64,000 nucleotides of DNA from an uncultured Candidatus Saccharibacteria bacterium (lineage in GTDB: Bacteria > Patescibacteriota > Minisyncoccia > Phycocordibacterales > UBA2163): assembly GCA_964626705.1 (NCBI GenBank), contig CAZVGL010000001.1, positions 87,643 through 151,642 on the forward strand. The letters run 5' to 3'. The notes under the pieces are model-generated. The model did no database searches. It was not told the DNA's origin and saw only the letters and a program-made list of their open reading frames with translations. Made by a program: the position numbers and the translations under genes. Shown in pieces: positions 8,036 through 59,264 of this stretch (position 1 is its first letter; each line of letters starts with the position of its first letter).

Positions 8036-9487
8036 ATGAAACAAAATTATTTATATATCCTGATAGGTGGGTTTGCAGTGGGTATATTATTTCGGTCATT
8101 TTTTAATCTAGGTTTATCTTTCTCAATCTTTCTAATCGCACTTTCGGGTGTGATTTTTCTTTTTTATTATTTAAATAAAAACAAAGGACAGTCCTTTGTG
8201 TGGATAAGTATCTTTATACTTTTTGCTGGTGTTGGAGTATTGCGGTTTGATGTTGCAGATTTAAATAAGGGAAGTCTTGTGCTTGATGAAGTAGTAGGAC
8301 AAGAGGTTGTGTTAGAGGGGGTTGTCGTAGATGAGCCAGATGAGAGGGAAAATAATACGAGGCTAATTGTTAATTTCATTGATACTGGTAGTAAGGCTAT
8401 TATCACAGCAGATATACACCCAAGGTTTTCATATGGAGATAAAGTGAGTATAAATGGGGAGTTATTGAAGCCTAAAAATTTTGTAGGAGAAGACGGTGAT
8501 AGTTTTGACTATGTATCATATCTTGCAAAAGATGAGATCTTTTATCAAATGTTTTATCCAAATGTTGAGCTCATCTCAAGCGGACATGGCAATATTATAA
8601 AGCGCAATTTATTTGCATTTAAGCGTGTGTTTCTGGAGAAAGTAAGTAGAGTGATTCCTGATCCGCAAAGCTCGCTTCTAGGTGGGCTGGTAGTTGGGGC
8701 AAAGCAGTCGCTTGGTGAGGAGCTCCAAGAAGATTTTAGAAAAACTGGGATTATACACATTGTTGTTCTTTCTGGATATAACGTGACAATTGTTGCAGAA
8801 GCAATAATGCGTTTCTTTTCTTTCTTGCCGTATATGTTTGGTATCTCCGTCGGGGTAGTGTCTATTATTTTCTTTGCTATTATGACCGGAGGGTCTGCGA
8901 CCATAGTCCGTGCTTCTATGATGGCCATATTTGTATTGCTTGCACGCGCTACAGGAAGGACGCAGACTATAACGCGAGCATTGTTCTTAGCGGGTTTTCT
9001 GATGCTCTTGCACAATCCAAAAATCTTAGTCTTTGATTCTTCTTTTCAGCTTTCATTTACTGCAACACTTGCGCTTATATATTTAGCACCGAAGATAGAA
9101 AAACATTTTCATTTAGTACCCACTAGGTTTCAGCTAAGAGAATTCGCAGTCGCAACAGTTGCGACGCAGATCTTTGTATTGCCGATGATTCTTTACAAGA
9201 TGGGAACGCTCTCACTCGTAGCGCTTCCGGTGAATCTTCTTATATTAGTATTTGTACCGATAACTATGCTTTTTGGTTTTGTCACAGGCATGCTCGGATT
9301 CATCTCTACAGTCTTCTCATTACCATTTGCATTTATAACAAATTTTCTACTTACGTATCAGCTTAAAGTTGTAGACATTTTCGCATCACTACCATTTGCA
9401 TCTATAGAAATAAACTACTTCCCGATATGGATAGCAGTCCTAATTTACATAATCTACGGATTATTTCTGTGGAAGTGGAAAGATTAA
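8036..9487 (+). CDS. comEC: ComEC/Rec2 DNA-uptake channel, core only (DUF4131 + competence domain, no MBL domain)
   Basis: It is a polytopic membrane protein. The conserved ComEC block LLGGLVVGAKQSLGEELQEDFRKTGIIHIVVLSGYNVTIV is present. It carries one in-frame palindromic insert at 8181-8199. Confidence 0.82.
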   Translation: MKQNYLYILIGGFAVGILFRSFFNLGLSFSIFLIALSGVIFLFYYLNKNKGQSFVWISIFILFAGVGVLRFDVADLNKGSLVLDEVVGQEVVLEGVVVDEPDERENNTRLIVNFIDTGSKAIITADIHPRFSYGDKVSINGELLKPKNFVGEDGDSFDYVSYLAKDEIFYQMFYPNVELISSGHGNIIKRNLFAFKRVFLEKVSRVIPDPQSSLLGGLVVGAKQSLGEELQEDFRKTGIIHIVVLSGYNVTIVAEAIMRFFSFLPYMFGISVGVVSIIFFAIMTGGSATIVRASMMAIFVLLARATGRTQTITRALFLAGFLMLLHNPKILVFDSSFQLSFTATLALIYLAPKIEKHFHLVPTRFQLREFAVATVATQIFVLPMILYKMGTLSLVALPVNLLILVFVPITMLFGFVTGMLGFISTVFSLPFAFITNFLLTYQLKVVDIFASLPFASIEINYFPIWIAVLIYIIYGLFLWKWKD

Positions 9488-11312: not shown

Positions 11313-11963
11313 ATGCAACCTGATTTCATATTTATAATAATAATACTTATATTTTCCGTAGTGATACATGAAGTAGCACATGGTTATGCTGCTAACTACT
11401 TGGGCGACCCAACGGCGCGTTTGGCAGGCAGACTTACTCTTAACCCTATAAAACACTTGGATATGATGGGGTCTATTATTATCCCAGCCATACTTATACT
11501 CACAAGTGCTGGATTTATTTTTGGTTGGGCAAAGCCAGTACCATATAATCCGTATAATCTACGAAAGGGTGGCAAATGGGCAGAGGCGATAGTCGCAGGA
11601 GCAGGGCCAGCTTCGAACTTTCTTATAGCGATAATATTTGGGCTTTTGCTTAGGTTCGGTATCGTGTTTGGTTTTGCTACTGTACCTTTTATACAAATAG
11701 CTGGGATAATAGTTTTTGTAAACATAATGCTTGGCGTGTTTAACCTTATACCCATACCACCACTGGACGGCTCAAAGGTTCTTGCGGGCATACTTCCGTA
11801 TGATGCAGGGCAGGCATATAGAAGATTTCAAGACAATATATCTCGGTATGGTTTTATTGGAATAATCGGATTTTTATTTATATTTATCTGGATCCTTGGC
11901 CCTATTTTTGTAAAATTAGTTTCTTTAATCTTCTCACTCATAACAGGGTTGCCTTTCTTTTAG
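11313..11963 (+). CDS. Site-2 protease (M50)-like membrane Zn-metalloprotease (COG1994-type)
   Basis: HEVAH (HExxH) lies inside a TM helix and there are multiple TM segments; length 216 aa. Confidence 0.6.
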   Translation: MQPDFIFIIIILIFSVVIHEVAHGYAANYLGDPTARLAGRLTLNPIKHLDMMGSIIIPAILILTSAGFIFGWAKPVPYNPYNLRKGGKWAEAIVAGAGPASNFLIAIIFGLLLRFGIVFGFATVPFIQIAGIIVFVNIMLGVFNLIPIPPLDGSKVLAGILPYDAGQAYRRFQDNISRYGFIGIIGFLFIFIWILGPIFVKLVSLIFSLITGLPFF

Positions 11964-12132
11964 TACTTGACAAGATAGTCAAAGTGTGCTAGTATATAGG
12001 CATAATACATCGGGTGTTATTTGATCTTTTATTTTTTTGATTTTTTAGCCGAAAGGGGTTAAAAATGAAATATTTATTTACTTTACTTATTGTTGCGATT
12101 ACTTTTGTTTTTTCAACTCAAAATTCTTTTGC
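11901..12132 (+). repeat. 232-bp direct repeat, copy 1 (3' end of the protease gene + promoter + RBS + signal-peptide coding region)
   Basis: It is identical to 13021-13252 by visual alignment. Confidence 0.9.
11967..11995 (+). promoter_or_regulatory. Predicted sigma70-like promoter (TTGACA-N17-TAGTAT), copy 1
   Basis: Near-consensus hexamers lie inside the duplicated 232-bp block upstream of the 12065 gene. Confidence 0.5.
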
Positions 12133-12922
12133 ACTTGTTCCTCCTGTTGAAAGTTTTCAACAACAGGAAGTACAGACCTCTAATTCCACGAGCTGTTATT
12201 TGGAATTAGAAACAGCTTTAGAAGAATTCTGTAAGGATTTCGTAGTTGAGGGATCGGTTGTTGAAGTGTCTATAAATACTATAGACGCTAATCTTATTCG
12301 TTCGAGAGACGATTCCGATAGGGCTATAAGCTTGGAAGTGTCTGTAAATTCACAACAGAAAGTTATATTCTTTGATTCTCTAATGGATGATAAGAAGGAA
12401 GAGGATAGATTAAAAGAGAATTTAAGATTGCATTTTCTGGCAGAAGAATATGTTGCTGGAGCAACAGCTGAGAGAATTAATGAGATTTTACATGAAGTAG
12501 AAGAGATGGAAGAAGATATGCAGAACCTCTTTCGACAGATTAGTGGGGAGATGATGGACGATAAAAATAACGAAGATAGGTTAAAATTGATTCTAAAGTC
12601 TCGTTTAACAAGTCATTTTTCTCAAGATGAAAAAAATGAGGCTAGTGATTCTTTTAATACTCTATTAGATAAATTAGAGTATTTTGTAAAAGAGAATTCA
12701 TTAGAAGGATTGTCTTTCCAGGAATTAGGAGAGAAATACACTTTAATTCTTGATTACAGGAGCCAGATTTTTGGAAATCTAGAGTATGTAATACTGTATG
12801 AGACTGTTGGTCTCATTACTCTGGAGTGTGCTAAAGAATTACGGACGCAGTTAAATGAACTGTTATCCGGTTTCAAAGAAACTTCAGACCAAGTATTGCA
12901 AATCCTGAAAGAATCGAAGTAG
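12065..12922 (+). CDS. Secreted acidic coiled-coil protein of unknown function (paralog A)
   Basis: Signal peptide MKYLFTLLIVAITFVFSTQNSFA. The internal duplication MDDKKEEDRLKENLRLHF / MDDKNNEDRLKLILKSRL is visible. An RBS AAAGGGG precedes the ATG. Confidence 0.6.
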   Translation: MKYLFTLLIVAITFVFSTQNSFALVPPVESFQQQEVQTSNSTSCYLELETALEEFCKDFVVEGSVVEVSINTIDANLIRSRDDSDRAISLEVSVNSQQKVIFFDSLMDDKKEEDRLKENLRLHFLAEEYVAGATAERINEILHEVEEMEEDMQNLFRQISGEMMDDKNNEDRLKLILKSRLTSHFSQDEKNEASDSFNTLLDKLEYFVKENSLEGLSFQELGEKYTLILDYRSQIFGNLEYVILYETVGLITLECAKELRTQLNELLSGFKETSDQVLQILKESK

Positions 12923-13000: not shown

Positions 13001-13024
13001 TTGCACCCAAAAAGGGCACGCCGA
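13001..13024 (+). repeat. Truncated solo copy of the TTGCAC structured-repeat family (head only) abutting copy 2 of the 232-bp duplication
   Basis: TTGCACCCAAAAAGGGCACGCCGA matches the unit heads at 13648, 13707 and 21562. Confidence 0.7.
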
Positions 13025-13252
13025 TTTTTGTAAAATTAGTTTCTTTAATCTTCTCACTCATAACAGGGTTGCCTTTCTTTTAGTACTTGACAAGATAGTC
13101 AAAGTGTGCTAGTATATAGGCATAATACATCGGGTGTTATTTGATCTTTTATTTTTTTGATTTTTTAGCCGAAAGGGGTTAAAAATGAAATATTTATTTA
13201 CTTTACTTATTGTTGCGATTACTTTTGTTTTTTCAACTCAAAATTCTTTTGC
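13021..13252 (+). repeat. 232-bp direct repeat, copy 2
   Basis: It is identical to 11901-12132 and carries the same promoter (TTGACA at 13087, TAGTAT at 13110), RBS and signal-peptide codons. Confidence 0.9.
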
Positions 13253-13598
13253 TTTGAATCATACCAGTTTCGAAGGTCTCACAAAGGAGTCTTCCATAGA
13301 AGATGTGGAAAAGATGCTTGATAAAGAGATAAAAGTCATTAATAACAAAAAAATCAATTTAAATAAAGAAAATATTCTTGTAAACCTTAAAAAGGCAAAT
13401 AAGAGTGTCGCTGAAGCAAGAAGTATCCTTTCTGGCGCAATATCAGAGCGTTACAAGATAGCGCTAGAATATGTAAAAATTTTAGCTGAAGAATTTCCTA
13501 CTGTTTCAAAAAAGAGAAAGGTGGAGATATTGGAAACTGTAAGAAAGGCAAAAATGACAGAGGAATTCTTAGCGGAAAGGTTTAAGGTTAAAGAATAG
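13185..13598 (+). CDS. Secreted small helical protein of unknown function (paralog B; same signal peptide, unrelated mature part)
   Basis: The first 23 aa are identical to paralog A. It is followed by the terminator at 13611-13647. Confidence 0.6.
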   Translation: MKYLFTLLIVAITFVFSTQNSFALNHTSFEGLTKESSIEDVEKMLDKEIKVINNKKINLNKENILVNLKKANKSVAEARSILSGAISERYKIALEYVKILAEEFPTVSKKRKVEILETVRKAKMTEEFLAERFKVKE

Positions 13599-13647: not shown

Positions 13648-13889
13648 TTGCACCCAAAAAGGGTACTGCAATCTGCAAATCAATCACTACGTTCTTGAGC
13701 AAACCGTTGCACCCAAAGGGCACGCCGGTTTGTAGCTGATCACTCCGTTCTCAGACAAACCGTTGCACCCAAAGGGCACGCCGGTTTGTGGCCAATCGCT
13801 TTGCTCTTGGACAAACCGTTGCACCTAAAGGGCACTGCAATCTACAAATCAATCGCTATCGCTCTTGAGTAGATTGGTTGCATTTTTTT
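13648..13889 (+). repeat. Tandem array of four structured repeat units of 56-59 bp (order B-A-A-B) plus a terminal TTGCAT, immediately upstream of rpsL
   Basis: The units start at 13648, 13707, 13763 and 13819. Each begins TTGCACC(C/T)AAAGGG(C/T)AC and ends ...AAACCG / GATTGG. The A units carry the inverted repeat CGGTTTGT-N21-ACAAACCG. The final TTGCAT at 13878 can serve as a -35 for rpsL. Confidence 0.85.
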
Positions 13890-13948
13890 GGCTTTGTAGT
13901 ATATTGTATCTACTCGCTAAGCGGGTTTTTTTATAAAAATACAAAGAA

Positions 13949-17122: not shown

Positions 17123-18577
17123 TTAATATTTTGACAAGAATAACAATAAAGCAATACTCCCAGCGCAACTTATTATAATGAAGGGTATATACGGTAAATG
17201 TGTTCTAAACCTATATACTCCTTTACTTATACTCATTACTGCTACTCCTGCCACTGATCCGATTGGTAATAAATTACATCCTATCCCAGTAGAGAGAGCA
17301 AATAGAAGCCATTGTAATAGATTCATGTCCAGTTTATCTATGTTTAGTACGGCATATACTACTGGCACACTCCCAAATAGGGCAGAAAATGCACCCATTG
17401 AGATATTTACCGCAGTGTGGCTATACGAATCGTACAAGTTACCAACTACAGTTTCGAAGAAACCTATATACTCTAGACCACCTATCATAGGAAGAACGCC
17501 ACAAATAAACAGAAGAGCATCAAACTCTATTCTCTTTATTCGTCTCGAGACTATATTATCTTCTTCATCATTTTCATCATCGTCGGCAACTTCTTCTTTG
17601 CATTTTATTAACTTCATCATGTTTGGGATACCGCAAATAAAATGAAGAGCGTTGAAGTCTACTTCTTTACTTATGCTTTCCTCTTTAGATTTCCCATTTC
17701 GTCTCTTGTCTTTCATAAAGAACGATTTGGCTAAATATGTTAGACCACATAACATACCCAGATACGGAGGAAGGTGGAAGAAATGATGAAAACATACCCC
17801 TGTTCCTATTGTAAGAAGGAAGCATATCATTGCTCTATAAGCACCAGGTTTCATTTTGCGCACATTTAGTGATTCTTGACTCCCATTTCCTGGGCAACCT
17901 TTTGGGACAAACCAAACGGTGAGCATTGTGAATATAATCCAACAGACAATAGCGGGTGCGGCTAATGATTTTACAAATTCTGCAGTAGGTATTTTGTCTG
18001 CAACCCACAACATTAGAAGGGTGATATCTCCAAAAGGACTCCAAGCACCACCAGCATTAGATGCCAGTATAATACCAACACTCGTGGGTATTAGAAACTT
18101 TATGTTTTTTCTCTCAACTGTAAAAGCGACATTCGCCATAAGCATAGCGCTTGTCAGATTGTCCAAAACAGGAGACATACAAAACGTTAAAAACCCTGTC
18201 ATAACAAATAGCCATCTGTAACTACGCTGTTTCTTTTTTAGTCGGTCACTTAGATTATCGAAAACACCTAAATAAGTTAAGGTGTTAACATATATCATGG
18301 CGACCATAAGGAAGAAGAATAGCTCTCCTATGCTGGCTGTCATCTTAATTCTAAACCACTCATTGATTTCAGAATGATTTATAAACCCGTGTACTCCTAT
18401 ACAAAGCCAGATAATACCGGACGCAGACATTACTGGTATAAACTTATTAAGACTTATCGTCTTTTCAAGTATAACCAGAATGAATGCTGTCATTGCTATT
18501 CCTAATATGAAATAGCTCAGCATATGGTTCTCTAGCCATATACTACTGTTGATTAAATCGTTGTTGTGTATTTCCAT
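17123..18577 (-). CDS. ArsB/NhaD/CitMHS-superfamily ion transporter with a large central cytoplasmic loop
   Basis: About 12 TM helices and an acidic central loop (..EEVADDDENDEEDN..). The RBS AAAGGGGG lies 5 nt before the ATG at 18577; the ORF track begins 2 codons earlier. Confidence 0.5.
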   Translation of the reverse strand: MEIHNNDLINSSIWLENHMLSYFILGIAMTAFILVILEKTISLNKFIPVMSASGIIWLCIGVHGFINHSEINEWFRIKMTASIGELFFFLMVAMIYVNTLTYLGVFDNLSDRLKKKQRSYRWLFVMTGFLTFCMSPVLDNLTSAMLMANVAFTVERKNIKFLIPTSVGIILASNAGGAWSPFGDITLLMLWVADKIPTAEFVKSLAAPAIVCWIIFTMLTVWFVPKGCPGNGSQESLNVRKMKPGAYRAMICFLLTIGTGVCFHHFFHLPPYLGMLCGLTYLAKSFFMKDKRRNGKSKEESISKEVDFNALHFICGIPNMMKLIKCKEEVADDDENDEEDNIVSRRIKRIEFDALLFICGVLPMIGGLEYIGFFETVVGNLYDSYSHTAVNISMGAFSALFGSVPVVYAVLNIDKLDMNLLQWLLFALSTGIGCNLLPIGSVAGVAVMSISKGVYRFRTHLPYIPFIIISCAGSIALLLFLSKY

Positions 18578-18725
18578 ACACACCCCCTTTCAAAGAAGTT
18601 AAAGTGTAATTTTTAATTTAATTTTCGATTCTCAAGGTGCTGCAAACCTGCATAGTTGTAACATATTCAGCCCCTTGGCGCAATTATTCTGAACATGTGA
18701 ACGTCGCACGTCCAACTACAGGTAC

Positions 18726-18757
18726 TATGATTAACCCAAGTGGTACAGTTAACTGTA
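18726..18757 (+). promoter_or_regulatory. Perfect 14-bp stem-loop in a divergent intergenic region
   Basis: CCCAAGTGGTACAG-TTAA-CTGTACCACTTGGG. There is no convergent gene for it to terminate. Confidence 0.4.
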
Positions 18758-18875
18758 CCACTTGGGACTTTCTGTTTAATTTGCTATTTTTTGAGATTTT
18801 CGTAGACTTGTGAGTAGTAAGTTGTTTTTATCAAGATCTAATTTTTTTAAGAAATTTAGAGAAGGAGGTTTTAAG

Positions 18876-19076
18876 ATGGATGACGCAGGAATGAGCAAAG
18901 GACTTATGTGGTTTCATGCAATCGTTCCAGCACTATTATTTTTTGGCTGTATAGGAGTTGTTGTATGGGCTTCTTTTGAAAGAGGTAAGAAAAAAGAATT
19001 AAAAAAAGAAAATAACAAATTAAAGAATGATGTAAACAGGCTTGAACGAGGGATATTAAGAAGTGATCACTGTTAA
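18876..19076 (+). CDS. Small single-TM protein with a C-terminal coiled coil (hypothetical)
   Basis: The RBS GAAGGAGG lies 7 nt upstream of the ATG at 18876. TM helix AIVPALLFFGCIGVVVWASF. The ORF-track start at 18810 is an upstream extension without an RBS. Confidence 0.5.
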   Translation: MDDAGMSKGLMWFHAIVPALLFFGCIGVVVWASFERGKKKELKKENNKLKNDVNRLERGILRSDHC

Positions 19077-19100
19077 TTTTTTTTGAAACGGAGATGACCA

Positions 19101-19373
19101 ATGATAGAACTACTTGATCATATGTATTCTGCAAATGATGAGCAAATGACGTATTTGGCAAAAAGGATAATAGAGGGATCTGAAGTAACAATTGGGTATA
19201 AAGAAGAAAAGGCTTGGCTTGATAAATATACTGAGAGACAGCTAGGGATACCTTTTGACTTTGCGGAGCTGTATTTGAAACTAGGCATAATCGAGTGTCA
19301 TTCTGGCAATAATGATACCTGGGAACGGCATTATCTATTTCCTTATGAAAGGGCTTCAAGAATCACTTTTTAG
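19101..19373 (+). CDS. Hypothetical protein (90 aa)
   Basis: The RBS GGAG lies 7 nt upstream. It has no recognisable family and is adjacent to the 18876 gene. Confidence 0.4.
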   Translation: MIELLDHMYSANDEQMTYLAKRIIEGSEVTIGYKEEKAWLDKYTERQLGIPFDFAELYLKLGIIECHSGNNDTWERHYLFPYERASRITF

Positions 19374-19574
19374 TTGCGCTTTATCAAAAAGTAGGGCAGA
19401 GGACTCACTAGTACGAGTTTTCTGCCTATTTTTATATTATATCTTGCGCTTTTATTTATGTTCTGGTACTATATATCACATATCGCCTTGTGCGCTTTTT
19501 GTTATGCGCGCGAGCTTTGTCGCTAAAAAGGGGGGATATTGGTAAATTTATTAATTATTAATACATAAATTATT

Positions 19575-20776: not shown

Positions 20777-21148
20777 ATGACAACAGCGACAACTAAAACT
20801 AAAAAAGCGCCTGCTAAGAAAAAAGCGTCAAAAAAAGACGAAGCGCCTAAGATCCGAATCCGTGTTCGTGCATACGAGCATAAGATTTTGGACAGTTCTA
20901 TAAAACAAATTATAGACACAGTGCTTCGTTTTGATGCAAAGATAGTAGGACCTATACCGCTTCCAACAGAGATCAAGAAGTATACTGTAAACCGTGCATC
21001 ATTTGTTTACAAAGATGCTCGTGAGCAGTTTGAGATGAGAGTTCATAAAAGGGTTATAGATATCCTTAGCCCATCTCCAAAGATCATAGAAGCGCTCACA
21101 AACATGAGCTTACCGTCTGGAGTCAATATCGACATAAAGATGGTTTAA
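20777..21148 (+). CDS. rpsJ: 30S ribosomal protein uS10 with a ~25-aa Lys/Ala-rich N-terminal extension
   Basis: IRIRVRAYEHKILDSS...VNRASFVYKDAREQFEMRVHKR is the S10 core. It is preceded by TTATTKTKKAPAKKKASKKDEAPK. Confidence 0.93.
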   Translation: MTTATTKTKKAPAKKKASKKDEAPKIRIRVRAYEHKILDSSIKQIIDTVLRFDAKIVGPIPLPTEIKKYTVNRASFVYKDAREQFEMRVHKRVIDILSPSPKIIEALTNMSLPSGVNIDIKMV

Positions 21149-21160
21149 ACTAAGATACAA

Positions 21161-21193
21161 AAACCCCGCAGGCTCAGCCTGCGGGGTTTTTGA
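21161..21193 (+). terminator. Strong rho-independent terminator directly after rpsJ
   Basis: CCCCGCAGGC-TCAG-CCTGCGGGG followed by TTTTTG. Confidence 0.85.
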
Positions 21194-21287
21194 TTTGCTT
21201 TACAAAATGATCTGACTATGGCAAACTATCATCTGGTAGTAAAACGTTGTACTCTATTTTAATCAATCTTTGTAAAGAGGAGGCTCA

Positions 21288-21464
21288 ATGTCAGTATCAA
21301 AAAAGACAAAGAAGAAACCTATTGAGAAAGAAGAATTTTTCATCGGTGTGTGTAATGAATGCGGAAACGAAACCGTAAAAGTTTCAAGCCTTGTTATAAA
21401 ACATTGGACGGATAAATGTAAGATCGGCAGTTGTGATGGGAGATACACTTACATCGAGGTTTGA
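21288..21464 (+). CDS. Unannotated 58-aa Cys4 zinc-ribbon-like protein (the ORF track missed it because it is under 60 aa)
   Basis: A perfect RBS AAGAGGAGG lies 6 nt before the ATG. Translation: MSVSKKTKKKPIEKEEFFIGVCNECGNETVKVSSLVIKHWTDKCKIGSCDGRYTYIEV (CxxC...CxxxxC). The minus-strand ORF at 21263-21448 is its antisense shadow. Confidence 0.6.
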   Translation: MSVSKKTKKKPIEKEEFFIGVCNECGNETVKVSSLVIKHWTDKCKIGSCDGRYTYIEV

Positions 21465-21561
21465 TATCTAATCAGTAAAAAAAGTTTATAATCAGTTACG
21501 CTCGCATACCCTGCATCATAGTGGGTTTGCGAGCATTTTTTTGTATAAAATCACCAAAATC

Positions 21562-21762
21562 TTGCACCCAAAGGGCACGCCGGTTTGTGGCTGATCACTC
21601 CGTTCTCAGACAAACCGTTGCACCCAAAGGGTACTTGCAATTTGCTAGGCCAATCGCTACGCTTTTGGGCAAATTGGTTGCACGACTCGGATTAGACAGC
21701 CTCCATGCACGCCGGTTTGTGGCTGATCACTCCGTTCTCAGACAAACCGTTGCATTTTATTG
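21562..21762 (+). repeat. Second tandem array of the TTGCAC structured-repeat family (units of 56, 60 and 72 bp plus a terminal TTGCAT) immediately upstream of rplC
   Basis: Unit 1 (21562-21617) differs from unit 2 of the rpsL array at one position. Unit 3 carries a 25-nt insert after the head. The array ends in TTGCAT, which forms a -35. Confidence 0.85.
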
Positions 21763-21778
21763 AGTATTATAGTACTAT
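21750..21778 (+). promoter_or_regulatory. Predicted promoter TTGCAT-N17-TACTAT for the rplC sub-operon
   Basis: The hexamers and spacing fit. The -35 is the terminal repeat head. Confidence 0.5.
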
Positions 21779-21793
21779 ACAATCACTTATTTA

Positions 21794-21815
21794 GAAGCTC
21801 GTAGCTTCTTTTTTG
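21794..21815 (+). promoter_or_regulatory. Leader hairpin GAAGCTCGTAGCTTC plus U-run, 8 nt before the rplC ATG
   Basis: The same motif recurs before rpsS (24576-24598). It looks like an attenuator or r-protein operator. Confidence 0.45.
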
Positions 21816-21822
21816 TTGAAAT

Positions 21823-22419
21823 ATGGCTAAGTTTATCATAGGCACAAAACAAAATATGACTCAGATCTTCGATACGGAAGGGCGAGTTCACCCAGCAACT
21901 GTTATAAATGCAGAGCCTACTTCAGTGACTCAGATAAAGAACAAAGAAAAAGACGGCTATGAAGCTGTGCAGGTGGGTTATGGAGAAAGAAAAGAAAAGA
22001 ACATAAACAATGCTCAGAAAACAAAAGGAAACTTTGAAGGTTTTAAAGAATTCATCGGTGCTGGGGAACTTAAAGTTGGCGACAAGATCGACATCTCAAG
22101 TTTTGCAGAAGGAGAAGAAATAGAGATCTCTTCTATTTCAAAAGGTAAAGGTTTTCAAGGTGTAGTAAAGCGTCATGGTTTTCACGGAGGACGACGTTCA
22201 CATGGTCAGAAGCATTCGGAAAGAGAGCCAGGTTCTATTGGTGCAACAGGTCCACAAAGAGTATTTAAAGGAAAAAAGATGGGTGGCCGTATGGGAAGTG
22301 ATAGAGTGACTTTGAAAAAAGTTGAAATACTTCAGATCGACAAAGACAATAATCAGCTTGTAGTAAGAGGTGCGGTACCTGGAAGAAGAGGGACTGTAAT
22401 AGAAATAAGCGCGCAATAA
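21823..22419 (+). CDS. rplC: 50S ribosomal protein uL3
   Basis: L3 family; length 198 aa. Confidence 0.95.
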   Translation: MAKFIIGTKQNMTQIFDTEGRVHPATVINAEPTSVTQIKNKEKDGYEAVQVGYGERKEKNINNAQKTKGNFEGFKEFIGAGELKVGDKIDISSFAEGEEIEISSISKGKGFQGVVKRHGFHGGRRSHGQKHSEREPGSIGATGPQRVFKGKKMGGRMGSDRVTLKKVEILQIDKDNNQLVVRGAVPGRRGTVIEISAQ

Positions 22420-24570: not shown

Positions 24571-24575
24571 CTGTA

Positions 24576-24598
24576 AAGCTCGTAGGAGCTTGTTTTTA
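24576..24598 (+). promoter_or_regulatory. Leader hairpin AAGCTCGTAGGAGCTT plus U-run before rpsS
   Basis: The sequence and position match the rplC leader hairpin. Confidence 0.45.
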
Positions 24599-28568: not shown

Positions 28569-30884
28569 ATGAAGAGAGTTTTAATATTTTCAACATCATA
28601 TAGCCCTCTTATGGGCGGAGCGGAGGTCGCTTTAAAAGAGATAACAAATCGACTTGGATCGGAGGATTTTTGTATTACTGACACAAAGGACAGTCCTTTG
28701 TCACCACAAAGGACTGTCCTTTGTGGTGAACTTTGCTTTGACATGATTACGATGCGATATGACAAAGCTCTACCTAAGTTTGAAAGTATAGGGAATATAA
28801 ATGTACATAGAGTTTCATCTTCTAAATTATTCTTTCCATTTTTTGCATACTTTAAAGCGCTGAAGCTTCATAGGAAAAACAAATACGACATAGTATGGTC
28901 CATGATGGCAGGTAGGAACGGTTTCGCTAGTTTATTTTTCAAACTTACACATAAGAAAGTTAAATATCTTTTAACTCTACAAGAAGGAGATCGTTTAAGC
29001 TATCCAAAAGAACGTGCAGGGATTCTTTGGTTTGCAGTTGGCGGCTTGTTTAAAAAAGTTTTTACAGAAGCAGATTTTATACAGGTGATTTCTAAATACT
29101 TAGGTCAGTGGGCGCATGACATGGGGTATAGAGGTGAGATAGAGATTGTGCCAAATGGTGCAGATTTAGAAAAGTTTAAGGACGGTGACTCACAAAAAAA
29201 GAATCAAGAATTAAGAAAAGAGTTAGGGATTGGAGAAAATGAAAAAGTGATCATTACAACTTCAAGGCTTGTAGAGAAAAATGCTATCAATGACATTATA
29301 CGGACTCTTACATTTTTGCCTGATAATTATAAATTACTAATAGCTGGTAGGGGGGATCTTTTCTATGAACTTAGAAAACTTACAGATGATCTACAGCTTA
29401 CAAAAAGAGTGTTATTTCTTGGAAATATAGAACATGAGCAATTACCTCAATATTTGCACATTTCTGATGTATTTGTACGCCCATCGCTCTCTGAGGGACT
29501 TGGGATCTCGTTTATTGAGGCTATGGCGGCTTCTGTGCCTGTTATAGCGACCGAAGTAGGCGGAATCACCGATTTCCTTAAAAATGGCAAAACAGGGCTA
29601 TTTTGCGGTATCCATGACCCAAGAGGAATATCTGAGAAAATAGAGCTTTTGATGAAAGATAATACGTTACGTGAGGGTCTTATCAAGAATGCTTTAGAGA
29701 TGGTAGAGAAAACTTATGACTGGAACTTGATAGTAAAAGACATGAAAGAAAAAGTTTTTGATAAGTTTGAAGTAAGAAGAAGTGTTTTAATTACTACAGG
29801 AATATTCCCCCCAGATATCGGTGGGCCTGCTACGTATTCCAAATTGCTTTTAGATAAATTACCAAAACATGAGCTTGATGTAAAAGTGTTAAGTTTTGGT
29901 GAAGTAAGGCACATGCCGAAAATAATTCGGCATGTCGTTTACTTTTTTAAAATTTTAAACAGAAGTAGGGGTGTTGATATTATTTATGCACAAGATCCTG
30001 TAAGTGTAGGTTTTCCGTCTGCTGCTGCATCTTACGTTTTACGAAAGAAGTTTTTACTGAAAGTTGTAGGTGATTATGCATGGGAGCAGTTTAGTGTTGA
30101 AAATAATAATTTTATAACCCCAGAAGAATTTCAGAATGGAAAATATGATTTGAAAACAGAAGTAAGAAGAAAGATTGAACGATGGGTAGGAAATATTGCA
30201 AATAGAATAATCGTACCAAGTAAATACCTCAAAAAAATAGTCTCAATGTGGGAAGTGAAAGAGGAGAAGATACAAGTAATCCATAATGGTATCGTTTTGA
30301 ATAAAGATTATGGAGATAAAGAGACGTTAAGAAAGCTCCTGCAGTTTGAAGGGAATCTTATAATAACAACAGGGAGGCTTGTACCATGGAAAGGTTTTGA
30401 TACATTGATAAAAATCTTCCCAGAGATAAAAAAGAAATTTAAAGATGCTAAACTTATAATAGTTGGTTCTGGTCCACAAATGAATCATTTACAAAAACTT
30501 ATCGATGAAAAAGGCCTTGATGAAGATATAGCTCTAACTGGAAAGCTAGATAATGATTTAGTTATGCGATATAAAAAAGTTTCAGATGTGTTTGTATTAA
30601 ATACAGCTTATGAAGGTATGTCACATCATATACTGGAGGTTATGAATGTTGGTATACCCATAGTTACGACAAATGTTGGTGGTAATCCAGAACTTATTGA
30701 AAACGGAAAAACTGGTTTACTTACTGAGTATAATAATGAAAAAGAATTAGAAAAAGCTATTATAAGGTTATTAGATGATAAAGATTATGGTAACAGGCTT
30801 GCAGGAGAAGCTAAGAAAAAGGTGCAGGAGTTTAGTGAAGAAAGAATGATGGAAGAAACAGCTAATATGTTAAAAACAATATGA
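28569..30884 (+). CDS. Tandem double GT4-family glycosyltransferase (two GT-B modules, 771 aa)
   Basis: There are two EX7E-type GT1/GT4 C-terminal motifs (..SEGLGISFIEAMAASVPVIATEVGG.. and ..EGMSHHILEVMNVGIPIVTTNVGG..). A 42-bp in-frame double palindrome lies at 28683-28724. Confidence 0.8.
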   Translation: MKRVLIFSTSYSPLMGGAEVALKEITNRLGSEDFCITDTKDSPLSPQRTVLCGELCFDMITMRYDKALPKFESIGNINVHRVSSSKLFFPFFAYFKALKLHRKNKYDIVWSMMAGRNGFASLFFKLTHKKVKYLLTLQEGDRLSYPKERAGILWFAVGGLFKKVFTEADFIQVISKYLGQWAHDMGYRGEIEIVPNGADLEKFKDGDSQKKNQELRKELGIGENEKVIITTSRLVEKNAINDIIRTLTFLPDNYKLLIAGRGDLFYELRKLTDDLQLTKRVLFLGNIEHEQLPQYLHISDVFVRPSLSEGLGISFIEAMAASVPVIATEVGGITDFLKNGKTGLFCGIHDPRGISEKIELLMKDNTLREGLIKNALEMVEKTYDWNLIVKDMKEKVFDKFEVRRSVLITTGIFPPDIGGPATYSKLLLDKLPKHELDVKVLSFGEVRHMPKIIRHVVYFFKILNRSRGVDIIYAQDPVSVGFPSAAASYVLRKKFLLKVVGDYAWEQFSVENNNFITPEEFQNGKYDLKTEVRRKIERWVGNIANRIIVPSKYLKKIVSMWEVKEEKIQVIHNGIVLNKDYGDKETLRKLLQFEGNLIITTGRLVPWKGFDTLIKIFPEIKKKFKDAKLIIVGSGPQMNHLQKLIDEKGLDEDIALTGKLDNDLVMRYKKVSDVFVLNTAYEGMSHHILEVMNVGIPIVTTNVGGNPELIENGKTGLLTEYNNEKELEKAIIRLLDDKDYGNRLAGEAKKKVQEFSEERMMEETANMLKTI
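28683..28724. repeat. Two copies of the 19-bp palindrome ACAAAGGAC(A/T)GTCCTTTGT separated by CACC, in frame within the glycosyltransferase gene
   Basis: The sequence is a perfect inverted repeat with no stop codon in any frame. It encodes TKDSPLSPQRTVLC. Confidence 0.9.
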
Positions 30885-31963: not shown

Positions 31964-32997
31964 TAGTTACACAAAAAGTAGACAAGAATGATGATAATCT
32001 TGGTTTTTTTCACCGATGGATTTTAGAGTTTGCAAAGCATTACGAGTTTATAACGATCATTGCACTTGGAGTTGGTGAGTACGATTTACCAGATAATGTT
32101 AAAGTTCTTTCTCTTGGTAAAGAGAGAGGTGCATCAAAGATAGAATATCTTATTAATTTCTATAAATACATCTGGAGTGAGCATAAAAACTACGACGCAG
32201 TATTTGTACATATGAATCCGATCTATGTAGTATTAGGCGGGCTGTTATGGAAGTCTTGGAAGAAAAAGGTAGGACTTTGGTATACGCATAAATCAGTTGA
32301 TACAAAACTTCGTATTGCAGAAGGCTGGGTGGACTATATTTTTACCGCGTCTGATAAAAGTTTTCGTATGCGAAGTAAAAAGCTGCATATAATGGGGCAT
32401 GGGATAGATGCAGACGAATTTAAAGTAAACAAAGGACTGTCCTTTGTCGCTACAAAAGACAGTCCTTTGTTAATATCTAACAAAATAAATATTTTACATA
32501 TTGGACGTATTTCTCGTTCCAAAAATATACATTTATTTGTTAAGTTTGCTGAAATACTAAAAAACAAAGGAGTAAAGTTTCAGATAAATATCGTTGGTGG
32601 TGCAATAACAAAAGAAGATAAAGGATATTTGGAAATATTACAGAAAAATATTTTAAATAAAGAGCTGGCAGAATATTTTAATTTTCTTGGACCTATGGCG
32701 CCACATGAAAGAAGTTTTCGTTTTATAGAAAATGATATTTTTATAAACCTAAGCGATACAGGAAGTATGGATAAGACGGTGCTTGAAGCAATGCTTTCTG
32801 GAATACAAGTCTTGGTGTCAAATGAAGCATTCATGAATATCTTGCCAAGTGAAAACAAAACAACAAAAGATCCAGAAAGGATCGCGAAAGATATACAGCG
32901 GATTATAGGTGTTACACCGAACCCATCTCTGCGAGGATATGTATTAAAAGAACATAATCTTAGTAATTTAATATTAGCAATAGTTAAAACATATTAA
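31951..32997 (+). CDS. GT4-like glycosyltransferase
   Basis: The C-terminal GSMDKTVLEAMLSGIQVLVSNE motif is present. A 42-bp double palindrome lies at 32438-32479. Confidence 0.65.
   Translation: MRLLIVTQKVDKNDDNLGFFHRWILEFAKHYEFITIIALGVGEYDLPDNVKVLSLGKERGASKIEYLINFYKYIWSEHKNYDAVFVHMNPIYVVLGGLLWKSWKKKVGLWYTHKSVDTKLRIAEGWVDYIFTASDKSFRMRSKKLHIMGHGIDADEFKVNKGLSFVATKDSPLLISNKINILHIGRISRSKNIHLFVKFAEILKNKGVKFQINIVGGAITKEDKGYLEILQKNILNKELAEYFNFLGPMAPHERSFRFIENDIFINLSDTGSMDKTVLEAMLSGIQVLVSNEAFMNILPSENKTTKDPERIAKDIQRIIGVTPNPSLRGYVLKEHNLSNLILAIVKTY
32438..32479. repeat. Two copies of the same palindrome family (ACAAAGGACTGTCCTTTGT, CGCT, ACAAAAGACAGTCCTTTGT), in frame within the glycosyltransferase gene
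   Basis: It encodes NKGLSFVATKDSPL. The second copy has one mismatch. Confidence 0.9.
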
Positions 32998-58994: not shown

Positions 58995-59264
58995 ATGGCA
59001 ACAAAAAGAAAAGCTGCAAAGCGAAAGCCAGCTAAAAAGCGAGTAGTAAAAAGAAAAGCAGCTCCAAAGAAAAAAGTAGCAAAGCGAAAGCCAGCTAAAA
59101 GGAAAGCAGCACCAAAGAAAAAGAAGGCTGCTCCAAAGCGAAAGCCAGCTAAAAGGAAAGCAGCACCAAAGAAAAAGAAGGCTGCTCCAAAGCGAAAAGC
59201 TGCAAAGCGAAAGCCAGCTAAAAAGAAAGCTGCAAAAAGGAAGCCAGCTCGACGACGACGATAA
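58995..59264 (+). CDS. Histone-H1-like Lys/Ala/Pro-rich basic protein (89 aa)
   Basis: It consists almost entirely of KRKPAKRKAAPKKKKAAPK repeats and is encoded with two exact 54-bp tandem repeats (59081-59188). A terminator lies downstream. The minus-strand ORF at 58854-59360 is its mirror artefact. There is no clear RBS. Confidence 0.5.
   Translation: MATKRKAAKRKPAKKRVVKRKAAPKKKVAKRKPAKRKAAPKKKKAAPKRKPAKRKAAPKKKKAAPKRKAAKRKPAKKKAAKRKPARRRR

Follow-up and report, generated by a model that had tools for sequence, protein, structure and literature searches.

What the tandem repeats directly upstream of the rplC promoter are, and how they came to lie there, is the question raised by this locus. 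In the 64,000-nt stretch of DNA analysed here (the window), three hairpin-forming units abut the -35 box of rplC. A sequence-only reading of the window had noticed that this array and a second one upstream of rpsL both precede a ribosomal-protein promoter, and had argued for a shared regulatory role such as growth-rate control, by analogy with the Fis/UP arrays of rRNA promoters. Little repetitive or mobile DNA is expected in the small genomes of candidate-phyla-radiation (CPR) bacteria, whose promoters have hardly been characterised; a literature search returned no description of such repeats in CPR bacteria.

The array was present at 21562-21762 as described in that reading, and belongs to the same family as the rpsL array. 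It is made of three head-to-tail units of 56, 60 and 72 nt, which occupy positions 21562-21749. The features of both sites are given below.

13001-13023, + strand: truncated, head-only unit, TTGCACCCAAAAAGGGCACGCCG
13648-13877, + strand: sister array upstream of rpsL, four units of the same family
13648, 13707, 13763 and 13819, + strand: starts of the rpsL-array units (hybrid, A, A' and B', respectively)
13878-13905, + strand: rpsL promoter, TTGCAT-N16-TATATT, directly 3' of the array
21500-21542, + strand: terminator hairpin and T-run from fold prediction, stem 21500-21534 then ATTTTTTT
21562-21617, + strand: unit 1, A-type, 56 nt, head TTGCACCCAAAGGGCAC at 21562-21578
21618-21677, + strand: unit 2, B-type, 60 nt, head TTGCACCCAAAGGGTAC
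21678-21749, + strand: unit 3, long-head variant, 72 nt, altered head
21750-21778, + strand: rplC promoter, TTGCAT (21750-21755)-N17-TACTAT (21773-21778)
21793-21815, + strand: leader hairpin and T-run, AGAAGCTCGTAGCTTCT, called as terminator-like and also found in the related locus L164

The general unit begins with a 17-nt head, TTGCAC-CCAAAGG-GCAC, which is followed by 2-3 nt and then by the tail. In the tail, a left arm of 8 nt, a bulge of 2-4 nt and an inner arm of 4 nt lead to a loop of 11-12 nt; the second inner arm and the right arm follow, and after an optional G the next TTGCA begins. The tail forms a hairpin of 37-39 nt (8 + 4 + 2 bp), and the unit boundaries fall between the G and the first T of GTTGCAY, just past this hairpin with its 2-nt unpaired bulge. 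The loop core TC(G/A)CT..CG(C/T)TC is conserved, while the stem sequences vary freely with pairing kept. A mini-stem inside the head (CCC/GGG) has only 3 bp and no covariation; one robust hairpin is found, at the 3' end of the unit. The family was recovered by Tandem Repeats Finder and by a separate repeat search, and the 17-nt head, for which 1.5e-6 occurrences are expected in the window, was observed four times exactly and twice with one mismatch. The GC content of the arrays is 50-54%, against 36% for the genome.

In unit 1, the outer stem pairs 21581-21588 with 21610-21617 (CGGTTTGT/ACAAACCG) and the inner stem 21591-21594 with 21606-21609 (CTGA/TCAG). As had been noticed from the sequence, this unit is nearly identical to the second unit of the rpsL array (13707-13762), with 55 of 56 positions in common, and unit 2 is a B-type variant: its stems, CAATTTGC/GCAAATTG and CCAA/TTGG, are compensatory variants of those of unit 1, different but still self-complementary. 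Unit 3 had been described as carrying a 25-nt insert between head and tail. Extra sequence is indeed present, but the string quoted, GACTCGGATTAGACAGCCTCCATGCAC, is 27 nt long, and its placement had to be revised: 24 nt replace the head core CCAAAGGG, a net gain of 16 nt, with TTGCAC and GCAC kept. The order in unit 3 is TTGCAC, the 24 nt (GACTCGGATTAGACAGCCTCCATG), CAC and an A-type tail identical to that of unit 1.

When eight units were aligned, 97.8% of the alignment cells were standard pairs, and changes on both sides were observed in 9 of the 14 hairpin pairs. None of 500 shuffles was as good as the observed pairing, and slid controls paired at 26-48%. Over all loci, eight distinct and fully complementary versions of the outer stem were found: the two given above for units 1 and 2, and in addition CAATCTAC/GTAGATTG, CAGTTTAC/GTAAACTG, CAGTTTGT/ACAAACTG, CGCCTTGT/ACAAGGCG, CAATAATA/TATTATTG and GATTTTCT/AGAAAATC. 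The sole non-pairing unit is the one starting at 13648 in the rpsL array, which combines a B-type left arm with an A-type right arm; such hybrid arms are the mark left when units recombine with one another. Neither DNA strand folds better than the other (z about -4), and with two G.U pairs on the + strand and one on the - strand the counts do not set the folding strand.

The rplC array lies between a terminator and a promoter. The terminator at 21500-21542 belongs to an upstream ORF encoding a Cys-rich protein of 58 aa (21288-21464), which itself follows rpsJ (20777-21148). On the other side, the rplC promoter begins immediately after unit 3, and of the two pentamers on either side of the array its TTGCA is the right-hand one; TACTAT ends 45 nt before the rplC ATG at 21823. 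Given this position between an upstream terminator and a promoter, the arrays are probably not transcribed. The leader hairpin at 21793-21815 is part of the promoter module and not of the repeat.

The placement just described also bears on whether the units could act as structured RNAs, either as stem-loop TIGR guide arrays or as some other small RNA or leader element. The stem-loop tigRNAs of a Patescibacteria TasR are about 54 nt long, and TIGR arrays are common in CPR bacteria (bioRxiv 10.64898/2026.09.09.750476; PMC12045711). The present units are similar in that they too are stem-loops, each of about 56 nt, repeated in tandem in the genome of a CPR bacterium, their stems varying and their loop being conserved. 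However, TIGR recognition requires two boxC(CNA)-9 nt-boxD(YG) intervals not more than 15 nt apart within a stem of at least 5 bp (bioRxiv 10.64898/2026.09.09.750476), and a TIGRFinder-style test on both strands of both arrays found no pair of boxC-N9-boxD intervals inside a stem. Furthermore, the loops are too short (21-23 nt, against at least 28 nt required), the would-be spacers are identical between units, and no Nop or Tas gene was found in the 57 ORFs of the window or, by precomputed Pfam annotation, in the flanking loci L169-L174. Rfam gave no match at the gathering threshold for the window and none at E<=1 for the two arrays. A structured-RNA function is therefore highly improbable.

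The ORF track contains an 80-aa frame (21521-21763) which the earlier reading had taken for the array read in one frame. A search among 5.8 billion proteins found no homolog at E<=1e-3, and Pfam gave only a sub-threshold match, so that this ORF is spurious, as proposed. The same search, which was also meant to bring out other arrays miscalled as genes, yielded none.

The array had further been said to end in a good sigma70-like promoter. This assignment held: TTGCAT-N17-TACTAT directly follows unit 3 and the motif is conserved in orthologs, although a promoter scan with the E. coli consensus left it uncalled in this CPR host, because the -35 box matches that consensus at 3 of 6 positions. TTGCAT-N16/17-TAnnnT was found at the same place in all the orthologous rplC, rpsL and rpsB upstream regions examined. 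Four intergenic promoters of the TTGCAT type are present in the window (rpsL, rplC, rpmB and sodA).

Three other signals were considered and set aside. Internal promoters were rejected, as no -10 box occurs 16-18 nt past any internal TTGCAC. The sigma54-like GGCAC-N5-TTTGT lacks the -12 GC, and its spacing differs between A- and B-type units. The likeness of the A-type loop (GATCACTCC) to the 3' end of 16S rRNA was dismissed, since it is not kept in the other units.

If the arrays were an established part of ribosomal-protein control, they would be expected in related organisms, just as relatives share the A/T-rich Fis/UP arrays of rRNA P1 promoters, to which alpha-CTD and Fis bind. Loci of L3 relatives were fetched (L157, L163 (92%), L164 (89%), L158-L160 (86%), L161/L162 (78% identical)). 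In about 140 kb of loci L157-L164, searches with nhmmer and a covariance model found no full unit and one hairpin-only match, in L164. The rplC promoter is free of any unit in five relatives (L157, L163, L164, L158-L160 and L161/L162), and so is the rpsL promoter in the three of them that cover rpsL (L157, L158/L159 and L161).

Alignment of the empty sites places the array precisely. In L164, the rpsJ terminator is followed by TTGCATTTTATTGAGTATTATAGTACTATACAA, 33 nt that are identical to positions 21750-21782 of the window, and no array is present. In L157, the region upstream of rplC reads ATCTAAAATCACGAAAATG-TTGCAT-TTTTTGGGGATTATAG-TACACT (the flank is also given as AAAATCACGAAAATG-TTGCAT), whereas in the window it reads TATAAAATCACCAAAATC-TTGCAC-(3 units)-TTGCAT (flank also given as AAAATCACCAAAATC). 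The promoter motif is likewise conserved in L157, L158 and L163. The sequence to the left of the array, through TTGCA, and that to its right, beginning with TTGCA, are both orthologous to one uninterrupted promoter; the rplC array has therefore been inserted precisely at the -35 pentamer and has TTGCA on each side. The rpsL site shows the same insertion pattern when compared with the empty orthologs in L157 and L158. Judged from these alignments, the array did not belong to the ancestral control region of rplC and appears to be a recent insertion. Signs of recent copying are the 98% identity between units of the two arrays, their GC contrast and the breaks that they cause in assemblies.

These data weigh on the cis-regulatory explanation, according to which a factor would bind the heads or hairpins and couple rpsL and rplC transcription to growth rate. 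Several observations agree with it: as at the Fis/UP promoters, repeats lie directly upstream of the -35 box of translation-machinery genes; the window arrays and the copies found at rpsB (see below) abut this box in sense orientation; head and loop core are conserved in sequence across species; and two of the four TTGCAT promoters of the window bear arrays, both at ribosomal-protein operons. However, the arrays are absent from close relatives at orthologous rplC and rpsL promoters whose promoter and leader are conserved, they are GC-rich hairpins rather than A/T-rich tracts, and one unit is a non-pairing hybrid. The comparison of array length among related genomes, which the sequence-only reading had proposed as a check, gave 0 units at rplC and rpsL and 0 to 3 at rpsB. 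Other copies stand at secG, within a 5'UTR and, in reverse orientation, within an ORF. The shared, conserved role proposed earlier is thus not supported, and we regard a cis-regulatory function as unlikely, though the units may affect promoter strength. That the closest relatives possess the same promoter without the repeat points to a mobile element and not to a conserved regulator.

The distribution of the family was followed in this genome and beyond. In about 84 kb of this genome, eight copies occur at three sites; the 10 kb on each side of the window contain no additional copies. An exact scan with the 17-nt head gave 69 genome, 78 metagenome and one viral contig matches, which is about the chance level; among viral sequences, nothing beyond chance-level or doubtful matches (e.g. 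L179, L191) was obtained with the loop 17-mer or with a degenerate form of the head. By profile search, true relatives of the unit were found on only four metagenome contigs (L103, L107, L132 and L141). All four occurrences adjoin a TTGCAW-N16/17-TAnnnT promoter, that of a secG-like gene in L103, that of another gene in L107 and that of rpsB in L132 and L141. The rpsB promoter was then compared in five species (S2 74-88% identical) and in L194 (S2 85% identical to that of L132), and its copy number was found to vary from 0 to 3 across related species:

L141, rpsB promoter: three units
L132, rpsB promoter: one unit and a remnant
L165/L166, rpsB promoter: tail-only copy
L167, rpsB promoter: degenerate stretch
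L168 and L194, rpsB promoter: none

These copies support the earlier suggestion that head and tail are separable modules. The head alone is found at 13001-13023, where it is joined to the left end of the second copy of an exactly duplicated 232-nt segment; the tail alone is found in L165/L166 and in L164, where a hairpin-only copy lies in the 5'UTR of rpsS (loop core TCACTCCGTTC); and the long-head variant is common to unit 3 of the window, L141 and L167. The L167 long-head unit shows homology to unit 3 over its whole length. It lies in reverse at the 5' end of a gene for a PhdYeFM-like antitoxin, as an in-frame insert of 75 nt flanked by direct repeats containing TTTCA; the insert is absent from the L194 ortholog. 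Rickettsia palindromic elements (RPE), which are mostly intragenic and about 100-150 nt long, resemble this copy as small palindromes in frame inside an ORF, but most copies of the present family are associated with promoters and are about 56 nt long. A second palindrome family of this genome also sits in frame inside ORFs.

TTGCA stands at the left boundary of all promoter-linked copies, TTTCA taking its place in L167. The flanking direct repeats are longer, 10-12 nt, in L167 and around a hicAB cassette in L163, and these would also fit recombination or template switching. The 5-nt flanking TTGCA is ambiguous, as a target duplication and a target next to an identical element end are indistinguishable.

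Could the arrays have arisen in place, by local slippage or unequal crossing-over of a promoter-upstream hairpin and gene conversion between rpsL and rplC? In relatives, the promoters and leaders of the two genes are paralogous modules (nearly identical over about 50 nt in L158), the hybrid unit attests recombination inside an array, and the units of the two arrays are 98% identical, all of which would fit an origin without mobility. However, TTGCA is all that the left flanks of the two arrays have in common, the head and tail recur in other species beside unrelated genes and, in reverse, within an ORF, and the relatives do not contain a single "seed" unit at their rplC or rpsL promoters. A purely local origin is consequently very unlikely.

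The explanation which we favour, and which we hold to be fairly probable, is that the array consists of a small non-autonomous hairpin insertion element of the REP/MITE-like kind, which takes TTGCA as target and regenerates the -35 box. The element is about 51-56 nt long, non-coding, and found in Paceibacteria-like CPR bacteria. Units are located at unrelated genes in several species, with an orientation fixed relative to TTGCA. As the right-hand TTGCA leaves an intact -35 box at the correct spacing from the -10 box, the element would be tolerated before essential operons.

In this scheme, an enzyme supplied in trans would recognise the head together with the folded hairpin and so move the element. 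Conserved head and loop, freely co-varying stems, the lack of terminal inverted repeats, one constant orientation with respect to the 5-nt target and the location of target and hairpin on the G-rich strand (the + strand, skew +0.15) point to an enzyme acting on a folded single strand. This enzyme could be an HUH/Y1 transposase that works on single strands, as in the IS200/IS605-RAYT group, or else a tyrosine recombinase whose site is folded. Integration would take place next to TTGCA, and the regenerated -35 box would let the element persist before ribosomal-protein operons. With the G-rich strand read as the leading strand, TTGCA and the hairpin would lie on the lagging-strand template, as single-strand transposition would prefer, an arrangement that is weakly suggestive of this mechanism. 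None of the 57 window ORFs scanned encodes a transposase, RAYT, recombinase or Nop protein. Arrays may lengthen when further copies insert into the regenerated TTGCA and when units cross over unequally, as the unit with hybrid arms at 13648 suggests. If rplC or rpsL expression is affected, this would be a by-product, for example of displaced upstream A-tracts or of cruciform-prone DNA beside the -35 box.

The apparent link with ribosomal-protein genes would be explained by a preference for promoters of the TTGCAT type. Four of the six unbiased occurrences are at ribosomal-protein promoters, which exceeds what neutral insertion at random TTGCA sites would give, so that target preference or selection must be invoked.

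The tyrosine recombinase deserves attention in its own right. The units could be attC-like folded sites for an integron- or Xer-like enzyme with TTGCA(Y) as crossover core, units and small cassettes being exchanged at mimics of the -35 box. The boundary within GTTGCAY, after a structured hairpin of variable sequence with a 2-nt bulge, would suit such a site, as would the inverted TGCAA at the 5' foot of the hairpin in B-type units. Moreover, different small cassettes occupy the rpsJ-rplC spacer in different relatives, and at the rplC promoter of L163 a hicAB cassette that ends in a hairpin is flanked by AATCTTGCATT direct repeats. However, this hicAB case may be an unrelated promoter duplication, most units carry no cargo, and no integrase is encoded among the window ORFs. 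The R''/R' consensus RYYYAAC/GTTRRRY is not followed in A-type units either: GTTGCAC matches GTTRRRY at 6 of 7 positions, but these units offer no RYYYAAC partner, and the units were accordingly rejected as integron attC sites proper. An attC-like mechanism is thus a serious alternative, although we judge it quite unlikely.

Returning to the favoured hairpin insertion element, its closest counterparts are the REP/BIME and IS200/IS605 families. Like these, the units are short, non-coding, intergenic hairpins formed by imperfect palindromes; the sequence that precedes the stem is conserved, terminal inverted repeats are lacking, the orientation relative to a short target is specific, copies are clustered and stems co-vary. 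The unit tail of 37-39 nt falls within the 20-40 nt of the imperfect palindromes that form REP stem-loops, and the units, in one orientation at a specific target and without terminal inverted repeats, are placed as IS200/IS605 elements are at their 4-5-nt targets. In REP/RAYT palindromes, a conserved GTAG or CGTC tetranucleotide is found at one end (PMC3733652). In contrast, the stem of the present units is preceded by GCAC and then GC, TG or GG, and GTAG appears only as a stem variant of the unit at 13819. Unlike REP sequences, the units of both arrays and of L141 all run head-to-tail on one strand without inverted pairs, and they are located at the -35 box 5' of genes and not at 3' ends, in a CPR host. 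Furthermore, a unit seems to have one hairpin and a 17-nt head in place of two subterminal hairpins. REP families have many copies and a cognate RAYT gene with REPs on its flanks; in the about 84 kb of this genome that were covered there are eight units, and the 57 window ORFs scanned include no RAYT or TnpA (Y1) transposase.

A DDE-derived MITE was rejected, as the ends (CCCAAAGGG... and ...ACAAACCG) are not inverted repeats; TTGCA on both sides could be a 5-bp target-site duplication, but is ambiguous. With one solid hairpin and no terminal inverted repeats, the element fits no characterised transposon class cleanly. Modular small repeats are known from other bacteria, namely BOX of Streptococcus pneumoniae (boxA-boxB(n)-boxC), RUP and Correia/NEMIS. 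The arrays resemble BOX in their tandemly reiterated module of about 45-60 nt, intergenic site near a promoter, stable predicted structure and possible side effects on expression, but they have no sequence relation to it and no flanking A and C boxes, and their insertion is precise at the -35 box and regenerates the pentamer. The element is best placed in the known class of small bacterial intergenic repeats, where its promoter-box target and its CPR host are unusual.

A broader proposal, possible but doubtful, is that the units represent an undescribed class of site-specific hairpin element in CPR (Paceibacteria) genomes. Such an element would seek out the TTGCA -35 box of strong housekeeping promoters, perhaps by way of the single-stranded or underwound DNA upstream of highly active promoters, would restore the box as it inserts and could stack into arrays. 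It would be a "promoter-safe" selfish element, whose copy number could also tune the output of ribosomal-protein operons through supercoiling-sensitive cruciforms.

Insertion at a -35 box with its regeneration is an unusual route of persistence for selfish DNA before essential genes, and it may make expression differ from strain to strain. The comparisons also provide a definition of the ribosomal-protein promoter of this clade, TTGCAT-N16/17-TAnnnT followed by a 5' hairpin and U-run. If the mobilising enzyme were found, the recognition of a five-base target and a hairpin could be of interest as a site-specific integration system.

The L3 homologs are named Candidatus Pacebacteria/Paceibacteria and Patescibacteria. 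The same organism, with identical arrays, was found in at least 25 metagenome assemblies, and no copy-number variation was seen among eight of its contigs. Two independent assemblies (L076 and L077) break at the array. This is of practical concern, as the arrays interrupt assemblies in the ribosomal-protein marker cluster that is used for CPR phylogeny and binning, and create spurious ORFs.

Immediately downstream of the -10 element, each of three ribosomal-protein promoters in the window is followed by a terminator-like leader hairpin with a T-run:

13912-13932, leader hairpin of rpsL
21793-21815, leader hairpin of rplC
about 24575-24597, leader hairpin of rpsS

This hairpin was kept at the equivalent positions in the related loci L157, L158, L163 and L164, with compensatory changes in the stem, of which the versions ACTCGC-TAAG-CGGGT, ACTTGC-TTTG-GCGAGT and ACTTGC-GGAA-GCGAGT were observed. 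None of the three leader hairpins matched an Rfam entry. They could be 5' stabilisers or attenuators of the ribosomal-protein operons, and for a role in conserved regulation the leader hairpin is a better candidate than the repeat arrays.

In L164, the 5'UTR of rpsS is longer than that of the window by an insert of about 170 nt (L164 3225-3400) containing two hairpins. The second of these shares its loop core, TCACTCCGTTC, with the tail of the A-type repeat, and is accompanied neither by the repeat head nor by flanking TTGCA.

A spacer between rpsJ and rplC is normally absent in bacteria; in this clade it is a variable hot spot, found at the following positions:

window 21149-21561, with a 58-aa Cys-rich ORF
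L157 9477-10000, with a different small ORF
L163 5020-5941, with a hicAB toxin-antitoxin pair between copies of the 11-nt direct repeat AATCTTGCATT
L164 331-455, with a terminator only, as in L158

Upstream of the rpsL array, an exact duplication of 232 nt was found:

11901-12132, first copy
13021-13252, second copy
13001-13023, junction

The duplicated segment comprises the final 63 nt of the gene for an M50 peptidase, a promoter of the form TTGACA-N17-TAGTAT and a signal-peptide start; the last is common to two secreted proteins that otherwise differ, encoded by ORFs 12065-12922 and 13185-13598. At the junction, a truncated repeat head is joined to the left of the second copy with TTTGT microhomology, and this looks like a recent rearrangement within a repeat unit.

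A second small repeat family is formed by the 19-nt perfect palindrome ACAAAGGACWGTCCTTTGT, of which five copies were observed in the window against none expected:

8181-8199, palindrome site
28683-28724, palindrome site
32429-32470, palindrome site

Every copy in the window is hosted by an ORF, either comEC or one of two glycosyltransferase genes. Within the 28569-30884 gene, the palindrome belongs to a 21-aa in-frame insert (CITDTKDSPLSPQRTVLCGEL) that is missing from the orthologs in L158 and L161; in this respect it resembles the in-frame palindromic insertions of the Rickettsia palindromic elements.

The str operon is split between fusA and tuf (17123-19545), where a CitMHS-family transporter gene on the reverse strand intervenes together with several small ORFs, the latter without family matches. 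Past rplE, the ribosomal cluster gives way to a large glycosyltransferase/methyltransferase (surface polysaccharide) region where the remainder of the spc operon would be expected. Upstream of secA, a Lys/Ala-rich ORF of 89 aa (58995-59264), for which no Pfam match was obtained, is made of tandem repeats of 54 nt and shorter, giving an AKKAAxK-type, histone H1-like low complexity.
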